This document shows positions 33,523-43,702 of a stretch of 64,000 nt of DNA, piece by piece. The stretch lies in assembly GCF_003334815.1 (NCBI RefSeq), contig NZ_QOWO01000008.1. The stretch is one strand, 5' to 3'. Position 1 is the stretch's first letter. Each line of letters opens with the position of its first letter. The notes below the pieces were generated by a model. It was not told where the DNA came from, did not search any database, and saw only the letters and a program-made list of their open reading frames with translations. The stretch comes from Escherichia coli. Its GTDB lineage: Bacteria > Pseudomonadota > Gammaproteobacteria > Enterobacterales > Enterobacteriaceae. The position numbers were made by a program, and so were the translations under genes.

Positions 33523-34101
33523 TTAAACAGCCTGTACTCTCTGTTCATCCAGCAGTTGTGGGATAATATCGGCAGGATTCTGGGAAAGTTTACGTCTTTT
33601 TACTGCCCGGGATGGCGGTTGACATAAGCTGCAGGCAAAGCTGCCAACAGGCTGGTGAGCGTGGGTAATAAAATTGCCGCCGCAGCAGTTGCAGCTGGAA
33701 AGTTGCAGTAATCCACTTTCAACAAACCGCACCAATGTCCAGGCACGGGTTAATGCCAGCAGTGGTCCTTCTTCTGCTTGTGGGCACTGTTCAAGGTATA
33801 AACGGTAGGCTTTGATCACCGCATCGACGCCATTACACAAACCGGTTTTCAGTAAAAACTGCCATGCATTACAGAACATCGAAGCATGAACGTTTTGTTC
33901 CCAGGTCATAAACCAGTCGGTTGAGAATGGCAGCATGCCTTTCGGCGGTGGGCTTCCGCGCAGTTCTTTATAAAGTTTTATCAGGCGTCCGCGACTTAAC
34001 TGTGTTTCGCTTTCCAGCATCTGCAAACGAGCGCCCAGGGTGATCAATTCCATTGCCAGCTGAATATCCCGCGCTTCCTGAACAATGCTTTTTTCACTCA
34101 T
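33523..34101 (-). CDS. flhC: Flagellar master regulator subunit FlhC
   Basis: 192 aa, [20 protein letters not shown]. Confidence 0.97.
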
Positions 34102-40619: not shown

Positions 40620-41609
40620 TTACTTACCGCCTAAACCTTTTTTCTCCAGTTCTTCTTTAAAGTTGTCACGCGTGATCAGTACCACGTCGGTAACTTCGGT
40701 AAATTTTGGCGGTTCAACGTCTTTTGCTACCCAGTTGTAAAGCATTTCGCTGGATTTATAGCCATGTACGTCCGGGCTTGGCAGCAGGGAACCGTAGAAG
40801 CCGGTTGCCTGTGCTTTAGACAGTTCGCTCACCGCATCCACACCGTTAATGCCAATGCCGATGATATCGGCCGCTTTAAAGCCCTGACCTTCCGTCGCGC
40901 GTACGCCGCCCAGCACGGTGCTGTCGTTCATACCGACGATCAGCCAATGTTTAACTTCCGGATGTTGAACCAGCATTGAGTTGGCAGCGTCAAATGCCCC
41001 CGGGATGTCGTTAGATTTGGTAGGTACCTGATAAATTTGTTTTTCCGGGAATCCGGCCGCTTTCAGCGCATCCATAGATCCCGTAGTACGGCGGCGGGCG
41101 GTATCCAGTTCGTTGGCGGTAATCGCCATCACCGCGCTTTCTTTGACATCCCAGCCACGTTTCTGCATCTCTTTATACAGTTCCTGGCCCTGACGTTCGC
41201 CAATTTTAGTCGCCGCCATCATCACCAGCGGAACGGTATCCATTGGCTTACCTTTGGCGTTAACAAACTGGTCATCCACGGCAATGACTTTCATATCGTA
41301 GCCACGCGCTTTCGCGACGATGGCAGAGCCGAGTTTGGGGTCCGGAGTACAAATAACGAAACCTTTTGCGCCACTGGCAGCCAGGCTGTCGATCGCGTTC
41401 AATGTTTTTTCGCCATCCGGCACGGCAATCTTAATAACCTCAAACCCTAAATCCTTCCCGGCTTTATCGGCAAACTTCCATTCGGTCTGGAACCACGGCT
41501 CTTCCGGTTGCTTCACCAGAAAACCGAGCTTCAGGTTCTCCGCCATAGCGGATTGTGACATAACGGCTGCCAGACCAATGGCTGCCAGGGCTTTAGTAAA
41601 TTTGTGCAT
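40620..41609 (-). CDS. araF: L-arabinose-binding periplasmic protein AraF
   Basis: 329 aa from MHKFTKALAAIGLAAVMSQSAMA signal peptide. Confidence 0.95.
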   Translation of the reverse strand: MHKFTKALAAIGLAAVMSQSAMAENLKLGFLVKQPEEPWFQTEWKFADKAGKDLGFEVIKIAVPDGEKTLNAIDSLAASGAKGFVICTPDPKLGSAIVAKARGYDMKVIAVDDQFVNAKGKPMDTVPLVMMAATKIGERQGQELYKEMQKRGWDVKESAVMAITANELDTARRRTTGSMDALKAAGFPEKQIYQVPTKSNDIPGAFDAANSMLVQHPEVKHWLIVGMNDSTVLGGVRATEGQGFKAADIIGIGINGVDAVSELSKAQATGFYGSLLPSPDVHGYKSSEMLYNWVAKDVEPPKFTEVTDVVLITRDNFKEELEKKGLGGK

Positions 41610-42405
41610 GGTTCTCTCCAGCTTTAGTGTCGTTTTGTGTAGGGCAAAAACGAATGACATTCGTTAAATTAATCGGAAAACAAAGCATTACCTTTTAACT
41701 AAAAGATAAGTGACTGTGTTGACATAGTTTTAGCGAGAAATTAATTCTCCATAGGAGAGCAATATCACATCGCAGAATTACAGTGAGAACGTGCATAAAT
41801 TTAGCGGGAAAAGACATAAGGGAAAGCCAATTTGTCAGACAAATTGTCGAATGCACAGCAGATTAATCCATAAGATTAGCCTGGAAATCCTTGTTGTCTT
41901 TGGTACCCATGCGGGATGTCTTCTTTTTAACCAGTCAATAGGCCGCATTACCTGGCGTTGAGTTTTTGAAATGGTGTAATAACCGCAACTCAAAGATGTG
42001 GAAAATGCACGTCATTCATTTCGTCATTAATTATCACTGTGCTCATTAATTAACAGAACACGTATAATGAGAGCCATCTCGCAAAAATGAAAAAACGTTT
42101 TATAAAATCATCACTTCATCATGAATTCAAATTCATTGATTAATATCAACAAGATACAAAAAGCACTATCATTAAAATTCATTGCAGTTACATTGATTTC
42201 ATCAATGAAATGTAAAAATATATAAACTTGATGATTTAAGCATTTTCTTATACCCGTTCAGACGTTATTCTTATTTCAGATCATCGTCAGAATTGACTCC
42301 ACGATCACATTTCGGACCGGCAGAAAGGAATTATTCTGCAAACAGTAATTATGGTGTTTTGATTTATCTTGCACCTCTCCACTTCTGGATATAAGGATAT
42401 TAGGT

Positions 42406-42909
42406 ATGGCAACCGCTGGAATGCTTCTCAAACTCAACTCTCAAATGAACCGCGAGTTTTACGCATCCAATCTCTACCTTCACCTGAGTAACTGGTGTTC
42501 TGAACAGAGTCTGAACGGCACCGCCACTTTCCTTCGCGCCCAGGCACAGAGTAATGTGACCCAAATGATGCGCATGTTTAACTTTATGAAGAGTGTCGGC
42601 GCTACCCCCATCGTTAAAGCCATTGATGTTCCCGGTGAAAAACTGAACTCTCTGGAAGAACTGTTCCAAAAAACGATGGAAGAATACGAGCAACGTTCTA
42701 GTACGTTGGCACAGTTAGCCGATGAAGCGAAAGAACTGAATGATGATTCAACCGTCAATTTCCTGCGCGATCTGGAAAAAGAACAGCAGCATGATGGTCT
42801 GTTGCTGCAAACCATTCTTGATGAAGTGCGCAGTGCGAAACTTGCGGGTATGTGCCCTGTGCAGACCGACCAACATGTTCTGAATGTCGTGTCACACCAG
42901 CTGCATTGA
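42406..42909 (+). CDS. ftnB: Ferritin-like protein FtnB
   Basis: 167 aa ferritin fold, paralogue of ftnA. Confidence 0.93.
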
Positions 42910-43239: not shown

Positions 43240-43353
43240 CGTAAACTCCTGATAGCATTTTGAAAGCCGTTATAGTAGCGACTTCACATCTTCAGCGATA
43301 GTCACATCCACCGTCATCAGGACACAAAAAAACCTGCCGGAGCAGGTTTTTTG

Positions 43354-43440
43354 TTATCGGAACATATTGCCTGGCGGTACGTCTTTGAACGTCTTGCAAT
43401 AGTTATTGAACATACTTTTCAGGATTTTGCGCAGTTTCAT
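43354..43440 (-). CDS. azuC: Small membrane protein AzuC (28 aa), part of the dual-function AzuCR RNA
   Basis: Minus-strand translation MKLRKILKSMFNNYCKTFKDVPPGNMFR followed by TAA. Confidence 0.75.
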   Translation of the reverse strand: MKLRKILKSMFNNYCKTFKDVPPGNMFR

Positions 43441-43702
43441 CGCGGCACTCCGACCATTTGTTATACAGGTGTTATTGTCTTTGCGCTTATAATATGACAA
43501 CCATCACAAAAATCAATCTTTATGTGATACAAATCACATAAATACCCCTTTAATGTTATAAAAATGATAATCAAAAAACAGCCCCCCTATTTCTGACACC
43601 TACAGATGGCAAGAAATAGCGCCTGCCAGGCGTCTTTTCCGGCCATTGTCGCAGCACTGTAACGCGTAAAATAGTGCTTTCTCTTACTCTTCTGGCTGGA
43701 CC

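Follow-up and report, generated by a model that had tools for sequence, protein, structure and literature searches.

The araF and ftnB genes of Escherichia coli are separated by a gap of 796 bp, which occupies positions 41610-42405 of the 64-kb stretch of DNA analysed here (hereafter, the window), with the minus-strand araF start codon at 41607-41609 and the ftnB ATG at 42406. The sequence of the gap is 100% identical to that of E. coli K-12 MG1655 (NC_000913.3, 1986129-1986924), for which RefSeq annotates no feature between araF and ftnB, and no annotation falls within it among the ~30 E. coli matches listed. It occurs, invariably in one copy, in 5,413 of the 5,426 complete E. coli genomes searched. 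With a GC content of 34.8%, against 50.4% for the whole window, and no conserved ORF, the gap corresponds well to the original prediction of a long, AT-rich divergent araFGH/ftnB region of ~800 bp lacking a convincing ORF. GC content is lowest towards ftnB (27.6% at 42000-42260 and 26-28% at 42000-42300). The neighbouring gap in MG1655 holds azuR/azuC, a dual-function sRNA and small protein.

The region is an ordinary and largely known one: control of araFGH by AraC and CRP, as well as control of ftnB by CpxR, sigmaE, FNR and CsrA, have already been described in K-12. Taken as a whole, the interval is very probably a bidirectional control region without coding function that falls into three parts, the coordinates of which are collected in Table 1 together with those of the individual elements.

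Conservation and layout of the gap

Conservation was followed in two samples, one of seven divergent E. coli and one of seven Escherichia species-level sequences, the latter being partly related to one another. Across Escherichia species, identity amounts to 86-99% at 41610-41809 and 41860-41884 and to 87-100% at 42210-42405, and drops to 46-75% at 41885-42209. Among the seven divergent E. coli, all 45 variable sites fall within 41822-42256, and the araF-proximal sequence from 41610 up to 41809 is 100% identical. Thus, the eye-catching part of the gap is the least constrained one, since it is there that the variable sites lie and that cross-species identity drops. From these identity values, the divergence of 41885-42209 was judged to be roughly at the neutral level for these species.

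A similar division emerges beyond the genus. An nhmmer profile built from 24 gene-containing gaps of other genera matches the E. coli gap at 41611-41917 (E=2.8e-71) and again at 42104-42401 (E=5e-33), and no part of this 24-gap profile matches 41918-42103. Likewise, blastn homology to ~30 loci stops at 41894-41895. A mobile-element or repeat origin of the central segment was rejected, as E. coli has one copy of this segment and no phage sequence matches it.

Table 1. Parts and candidate elements of the araF/ftnB gap (positions in the window; strand given as +, - or. for unstranded).
Feature	Position	Strand	Basis
Conserved araFGH control region: 5' UTR, promoter, CRP-like site, AraC half-sites	41610..41895	-	Profile, blastn, identity
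Poorly conserved AT-rich spacer	about 41896-42200	.	Identity across Escherichia
Poorly conserved segment where other genera carry a DJ-1-family gene	41896..42103	.	46-74% identity across Escherichia
Conserved ftnB core promoter and 5' leader	42203-42405	+	Conservation, motifs, published TSS
CRP-like TGTGATATTGCTCTCC, 8/10 to TGTGA-N6-TCACA, proposed araFGH CRP site	41754..41769	-	Consensus scan
Proximal AraC-like half-site pair CAGTGAGAACGTGCATA / TAGCGGGAAAAGACATA, 21 bp apart	41781..41818	+	Direct repeat D1, conserved
Distal AraC-like half-site pair CAGCAGATTAATCCATA / TAGCCTGGAAATCCTTG, 21 bp apart	41856..41893	+	Pattern search
Direct repeat TCATTAATTATCA / TCATTAATTAACA, 19-bp spacing, 'tcattaatta'	42024..42055	+	Repeat family D5
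CRP-like palindrome TGAGAGCCATCTCGCA, 8/10	42068..42083	.	Consensus scan; overlaps TATAAT 42063-42068
Perfect FNR consensus TTGATTAATATCAA, TTGAT-N4-ATCAA	42136..42149	.	10/10; centre ~135 bp upstream of ftnB TSS
Pseudo-palindrome TTGAT-TTC-ATCAA containing 'tcatcaatgaaat'	42193..42205	.	Inverted repeat I11
CpxR-like box GTAAAAATATATAAA, 9/10 to GTAAA-N5-GTAAA	42212..42226	+	Pattern search; centre ~-59 from TSS
RcsB-box-like palindrome TAAGCATTTTCTTA	42237..42250	.	7/8 specified positions of TNRGA-N4-TCTNA
ftnB transcription start, MG1655 1986796	42277..42278	+	SMRT-Cappable-seq, PMC6131387 Supplementary Data 2
ftnB 5' leader, 128 nt, GGA at 42314, 42327, 42387, 42395	42278..42405	+	Last GGA in Shine-Dalgarno region

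Control elements of araFGH and ftnB

The E. coli araFGH promoter reportedly depends on AraC and CAP, a dependence that is said to go back to the work of Hendrickson et al. in 1990 and of Johnson and Schleif in 2000. In its architecture, CAP lies adjacent to RNA polymerase and AraC lies upstream. PMC2893085 likewise cites this promoter as being AraC plus CAP dependent. The araF side of the gap carries what an arabinose promoter of this type calls for, namely 17-bp AraC-like half-sites arranged as direct repeats of 21 bp from start to start, and a CRP-like site, which sits between both AraC-like pairs and araF. This CRP-like site is invariant but for one spacer base across 13 Escherichia sequences and would correspond to the published araFGH CAP site. 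Within the proximal AraC-like pair, the half-sites at 41781 (read by eye) and 41802 (found by pattern search) have 3 and 2 mismatches to TAGC-N7-TCCATA, respectively. Those of the distal pair, at 41856 and 41877, have 1 and 2 mismatches and are 97% conserved across Escherichia species, and it is right after this pair that cross-genus homology ends (41894-41895). Matches to the AraC half-site occur at chance frequency across the whole window (39 vs 41 expected), and the case for the two pairs is therefore one of spacing and conservation. Compared with the araFGH promoter of E. coli, which is the same locus, the 21-bp-spaced direct-repeat half-sites and the CRP-like site, all within a block conserved across genera, reveal no difference, the correspondence of single sites to the published footprints being presumed from their sequence. 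The segment 41610-41895 thus very probably drives araFGH leftward, with the two AraC half-site pairs lying upstream of the CRP-like site.

On the opposite side, binding and regulation by FNR, CpxR and CsrA, as well as the transcription start, are taken from the literature, and the motif matches reported here can be laid over them. In addition to the ftnB start given in the SMRT-Cappable-seq operon table (PMC6131387), a pNAD-seq study from 2026 (PMC13273102) describes a second one, active in minimal media and located ~66 bp downstream, which would place it near 42344. The heptamer TTATTCT precedes both candidate starts. Upstream of them, the CpxR-like direct repeat is kept across genera as GTAAA-N5-(G/A)TAAA, and its 9/10 match has a chance P of 0.08 in shuffles of the gap; correspondingly, ftnB is a member of the Cpx regulon (PMC9600279, PMC2731931, PMC7657598). 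The RcsB-like palindrome is nearly invariant across genera as TAAGGATTTTCTTA and overlaps a sigmaE-like TAAACTT-N16-TCTTA; a sigmaE promoter of ftnB is published. An RcsB motif and a change in ftnB expression have been reported (PMC7913699), and 42237-42250 is a predicted RcsB site. In the arrangement proposed here, the CpxR-like box and the RcsB-like palindrome would stand just upstream of weak -10 elements, with transcription starting at 42277/8 and at the second start downstream.

The ftnB leader is 94-100% conserved across Escherichia species. All four of its GGA motifs lie downstream of the start at 42277/8, one of them overlapping the Shine-Dalgarno sequence, in agreement with the CsrA footprints and the four GGA motifs already described on this leader (PMC6686035). 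It is through these motifs of the 128-nt leader that CsrA represses translation.

Additionally, an FNR-type site lies inside the spacer. Nowhere else in the 64-kb window does the FNR consensus have a perfect match, and none of 300 shuffles yields a score of 10/10. In vivo binding of FNR at ftnB was validated by ChIP (PMC2690998), and PMC3212961 attributes to Partridge 2007 a far-upstream ftnB FNR site, located further upstream than the known sites; it is this binding that the box within the spacer would account for. The position of the box at about -135 agrees with that remark on distance and is atypical for direct activation, for which sites lie at about -41.5 or -61.5. In six divergent E. 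coli, the left half of the box reads TCGAT or CCGAT (8-9/10), the perfect version being confined to K-12-like strains, and in other Escherichia species only ATCAA is kept, with the exception of sp. MOD1 (CTGAT). Because the perfect box is neither fixed in E. coli nor present in most other Escherichia, its importance is uncertain.

Collectively, the elements found between 42136 and 42405 (CpxR-like, sigmaE-like, FNR consensus, four GGA and the published TSS) match the description of the same locus, ftnB (yecI), as having a CpxR-activated sigma70 promoter, a sigmaE promoter, a far-upstream FNR site and a CsrA-repressed 5' UTR. The two points that differ are the FNR box, perfect only in K-12-like strains, and the RcsB-like palindrome, which is seemingly not a described ftnB site. 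The suggestion of clustered regulator sites near ftnB thus holds for the FNR-type, CpxR-like and RcsB-like sites and fails for the Fur-like ones, for which no match in the gap reaches 13/19.

A DJ-1-family gene in related genera and the length of the gap

A scan with the FtnB protein, using one genome per species, returned 38 loci. The distance from araF to ftnB is ~790-800 bp in six non-coli Escherichia lineages, as in E. coli, and 1000-1430 bp in Citrobacter, Leclercia, Lelliottia, Enterobacter, Silvania and others. The five genera named, and also Salmonella, whose loci have no araF, carry an ORF of 185 aa immediately upstream of ftnB, on the same strand as araF. The product scores 131.8 bits against the NCBIfam model TIGR01383 (DJ-1 family glyoxalase III), for which the cutoff is 131.25. 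Some 26 loci carry the DJ-1-family gene between araF and ftnB, and in four (three of Citrobacter and one of Leclercia) it has decayed. It is missing from the six other Escherichia lineages examined, and a search with its DNA found no match among the 5,426 E. coli genomes.

Since related genera carry this gene and all Escherichia lack it, the long E. coli gap is most simply explained as two control regions that would have become joined after gene loss. According to this scenario, the coding sequence of the DJ-1-family gene was probably lost in the Escherichia stem, an event that would have brought the araFGH control region next to the former DJ-1/ftnB divergent intergenic region. The segment at 41896..42103 is probably the decayed upstream region of the lost gene. 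In line with this proposal, E. coli 41918-42405 measures 488 bp, and the DJ-1/ftnB gap of C. koseri measures 489 bp. Loss in Escherichia rather than gain elsewhere is what we infer, because the gene is present in the sister genera Salmonella and Citrobacter as well as in the Enterobacter-Leclercia group, the argument on direction being one of parsimony only.

A surviving remnant of the gene in the E. coli gap was considered and rejected: neither tblastn against the window nor the DNA profile revealed one, and six-frame translations of seven Escherichia sequences scored at most 0.8 bits against the protein HMM. The gap resembles the intergenic scars left by lineage-specific gene loss in enterobacteria in that a syntenic gene found in outgroups and sister genera is absent here, in that the flanking regulatory DNA is kept and the centre decayed, and in that pseudogenisation has occurred independently in four non-Escherichia loci. 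It differs from them in having no coding remnant, so that the event would be read from synteny and length only.

Repeats and AT-richness of the ftnB-proximal half

The ftnB-proximal half had been singled out for its repeated short motifs, and these are all present: tcattaatta at 42024 and 42043, attcattga at 42131 and tcatcaatgaaat at 42199, with attcattg occurring again at 42177. Two of them can be assigned to FNR-type sequences. The attcattga at 42131 forms the left part of the FNR box at 42136-42149, and tcatcaatgaaat supplies the right arm of a pseudo-palindrome, TTGAT-N3-ATCAA, directly adjoining the CpxR-like box; of the two arms of this pseudo-palindrome, only the right one, ATCAATGAAAT, is conserved in Escherichia. 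For the two copies of tcattaatta, none of the regulator consensus sequences scanned fits. Read on the minus strand, the second copy of TCATTAATTA yields TGTTAATTAA, which resembles an ArcA site but was rejected for having no properly spaced partner.

Dinucleotide-preserving shuffles revealed no repeat excess over the whole gap (P about 0.16-0.42), and a modest enrichment of near-identical direct repeats within 42000-42260 (P about 0.007-0.03). In that same segment, TCAT/ATGA occurs 16 times (7.9 +/- 2.2 expected) and TCATT/AATGA 10 times (2.8-2.9 expected), counts that 0 of 1000 shuffles reach in either case, in tests that are post hoc, as the motif was picked after being seen. The z-scores of this enrichment are 3.5/4.9 in E. 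coli and 2.5/3.8 in Escherichia sp. MOD1, and for E. albertii they are close to 2. Four further Escherichia lineages and 21 loci from other genera average ~0, with isolated values up to 2.8. The TCAT repeats thus appear to be a young, lineage-specific feature and not a conserved array of sites. In part they are FNR-type half-sites (TTGAT/ATCAA), and for the rest they are a lineage-specific trait of AT-rich DNA.

The AT-rich half could also act mainly as a platform for nucleoid proteins, on which H-NS, perhaps aided by Fis or IHF, keeps ftnB silent and FNR, CpxR or other activators counteract this silencing, the short repeats being by-products of an AT-rich, TpA-rich composition. This proposal is almost as plausible as its negation, and it is compatible with a three-part control region, neither excluding the other. 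The segment 42000-42300 stands out from the roughly 50% GC of the window, and the 261 bp equivalent to the AT-rich half are AT-rich in every genus examined (25-36% GC). IS1, which prefers AT-rich targets, has inserted into the gap three times. In Salmonella, H-NS binding by ChIP and de-repression of ftnB in an hns mutant are cited in PMC3212961, and coverage of the E. coli spacer by H-NS is plausible by analogy with that organism and from AT-richness. The motif evidence points the other way: of the seven sites that match the H-NS high-affinity motif TCGATAAATT at 8/10 or better, most belong to the araF half and not to the AT-rich half, and Fis-like and IHF-like matches are at chance level. More broadly, consensus scans of the gap for ArcA, IHF, Fis, OmpR, Lrp and NsrR gave no match or matches at chance level. 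All site scans relied on plain consensus strings and not on curated matrices, and several of the matches are weak, namely CRP at 8/10, an AraC half-site with 2-3 mismatches and CpxR with its P of 0.08. Of the regulators for which a scan had been proposed, AraC and CRP were found to have candidate half-sites and sites, respectively, Fur had none, Fis did not exceed chance and H-NS matched chiefly outside the AT-rich half.

A known case of such silencing is the ftnA promoter, where Fe-Fur reverses silencing by H-NS (Nandal et al., 2010, as cited in PMC6686035). Both genes belong to the ferritin family and have a long AT-rich upstream region, a likeness that makes silencing and its reversal an attractive model for ftnB too. 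The ftnB region differs in having neither Fur boxes nor a Fur effect in E. coli, and hence any anti-silencer acting on it would be FNR, CpxR or another factor.

Two short blocks within the supposedly neutral spacer, 42027-42053 and 42068-42083, are conserved across Escherichia. They lie within 42027-42086, a stretch that comprises TTAATTATCAC and TCATTAATTAA (cores of the TTAATTA type), a TATAAT and a TGnGA-N6-TCnCA palindrome. The two direct-repeat cores are kept in most Escherichia species (5-6 of 7), inside an Escherichia-specific segment in which their flanks are only about 50-70% identical. In the palindrome, the TGnGA/TCnCA arms are kept in all Escherichia lineages compared (E. coli, sp. 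MOD1, E69, E. whittamii, E. albertii and others) and the 6-bp spacer varies freely, a pattern that would be the footprint expected of a dimeric CRP-family site. The block could accordingly be a still-functional regulatory module from the promoter of the lost gene, now used by ftnB or araFGH, but this is improbable. The CRP match is only 8/10, and such matches arise in about half of shuffles; no convincing -35/-10 pair stands at standard distance from the palindrome on either strand (as read by eye); and the conservation is that of seven species-level sequences, partly related to one another. With similarly low probability, the block might be a CRP-family-dependent orphan promoter, or it might influence ftnB or araFGH at long range or as an architectural element. 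The palindrome itself may be a piece of the lost gene's promoter that still functions, or a product of chance.

The suggestion that a gene for a small RNA or small protein has been overlooked in the gap is very unlikely to be right. Such a gene could be expected from a length of 796 bp, long for an E. coli gap, from the perfect TATAAT at 42063-42068, from several ORFs of 23-56 aa, from a weak terminator-like hairpin at 41995-42013 and from the azuR/azuC precedent next door. However, Rfam gave no match at E<=1, and the number of sigma70-like promoters with at least 9/12 matching positions and at least 4/6 in each hexamer is 0 (3.0 expected). RNA folding yielded z-scores of -1.5 and 0.0, with no excess stability on either strand; for both the AT-rich part and the ftnB leader, the idea of a structured RNA was rejected on the same grounds. 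Of what an sRNA gene should possess (its own promoter and TSS, a terminator and a conserved sequence or structure), the gap thus offers nothing that resembles a promoter, and its hairpins are weak. In sister Escherichia species, stops or frameshifts disrupt all ORFs between 41783 and 42225, and identity at 41935-42200 is near neutral. The 17-aa ORF from 42087 and the 34-aa ORF at 42121-42225 were discarded as not being conserved even in the closest clade. The ORFs in 42276-42437 stay open, with few changes that are mostly amino-acid replacements, and they do so only because the DNA of the ftnB leader is almost invariant. The absence of RefSeq annotation there, in MG1655 and among the ~30 E. 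coli matches listed, likewise speaks against a hidden gene. SMRT-Cappable-seq favours long transcripts and is therefore ill-suited to sRNAs. The sole start it records in the gap is that of ftnB (PMC6131387).

Least credible of all is the proposal that the TCAT/ATGA repeats form a cluster of Fur boxes making ftnB or araFGH iron-responsive: the Fur consensus GATAATGATAATCATTATC includes TCATT/AATGA, which is over-represented in 42000-42260, ATTATCA at 42030-42036 could be read by eye as one arm of the 7-1-7 Fur model, and ftnB is activated by Fur in Salmonella (PMC3212961), but this reading is already largely refuted, as the gap holds no match of at least 13/19 to GATAATGATAATCATTATC and none of at least 12/15 to triple NATWAT hexamers (0.67 and 1.24 in shuffles), an ftnB'-'lacZ fusion is unchanged by deletion of fur in E. 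coli (PMC6686035), the Salmonella ftnB promoter has no Fur motif and an indirect effect through H-NS was argued for it (PMC3212961), and the TCAT enrichment is missing from most other Escherichia and other genera.

A bidirectional control region in three parts, with an araFGH portion, a poorly conserved spacer and an ftnB promoter and leader, is thus the preferred reading of the araF/ftnB gap. The minor new points are a probable evolutionary reason for its unusual length, namely the loss of a neighbouring gene, the seemingly young and lineage-specific TCAT repeats, a clear negative for Fur, sRNA and ORF, and one conserved palindrome that is unexplained. Beyond a tidy annotation of the locus, the significance of these points is slight. 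If the palindrome at 42068-42083 were functional, it would show on a small scale that regulatory DNA can persist after its gene is gone.

CpxR-type matches and the neighbouring azuC/azuR gap

Across the whole window, matches to the CpxR consensus with at most one mismatch are over-represented, nine being found against 3.4 expected, a number that none of 100 shuffles reached (0/100). The sole perfect GTAAA-N5-GTAAA in the 64-kb window lies on the minus strand at 33589-33603. Separately, azuC/azuR lies on the minus strand of the gap that follows the one between araF and ftnB (43294-43512), and the AzuC peptide can be seen in the ORF at 43354-43500; searches of this gap against Rfam returned a weak, sub-threshold match to STnc370 (33.4 bits vs a gathering score of 54) and a likewise weak and sub-threshold match to rsmX.

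Palindromes and IS1 insertions in the araF-ftnB gap

A candidate CRP-like palindrome, TGnGA-N6-TCnCA, is located at 42068-42083, where it overlaps a TATAAT at 42063-42068; its arms are kept across Escherichia species, and its spacer varies freely. Closer to araF, the two AraC half-site pairs flank an inverted repeat with perfectly matching 9-bp arms (CAATTTGTC-A-GACAAATTG, 41828-41846), whose TTGTC-N-GACAA core is found again in other genera. Additionally, Citrobacter and Salmonella loci (e.g., L019 and L012) share a conserved palindrome-like block, tgtgatatGAAACaccaTTTCAt, which lies between the DJ-1-family gene described below and ftnB, ~330-390 bp upstream of the latter, and takes the form TGAAACA-A-TGTTTCA in S. 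arizonae. The E. coli sequence aligned to this block (TGAAAAAACGTTTTA, 42088-42102) is decayed. Among 5,426 E. coli genomes, the gap has been hit independently by IS1 three times (see table).

Table. IS1 events in the araF-ftnB gap and the DJ-1-family gene, with the comparison loci (L numbers) in which they occur
Feature	Position	Detail	Locus
IS1 simple insertion, ftnB leader	42361-42369	9-bp duplication	L048
IS1 junction	42202/42203	loss of otsA-araFGH	L046
IS1 junction	41976/41977	deletion reaching into ftnB	L047
DJ-1-family (glyoxalase III-type) gene, 185 aa	1954-2511 of L013	equivalents in ~26 loci	L013

Gene content between araF and ftnB in other genera

In Citrobacter, Leclercia, Lelliottia, Enterobacter and Silvania, the DJ-1-family gene sits between araF and ftnB, and in the Salmonella loci, which are without araF, it is immediately upstream of ftnB. 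It is a pseudogene in four of the retrieved loci (L007, L014, L036 and L038) and is missing in all Escherichia. At the locus of Salmonella enterica subsp. diarizonae (L009, 1047-1700), an internal deletion of the araFGH operon has left a 3' piece of araH together with the promoter region and initial codons of araF, adjoined by an intact DJ-1-family gene. With araFGH internally deleted and the DJ-1-family gene intact in this genome, it therefore appears that different genes were lost from one and the same locus in Salmonella and in Escherichia.
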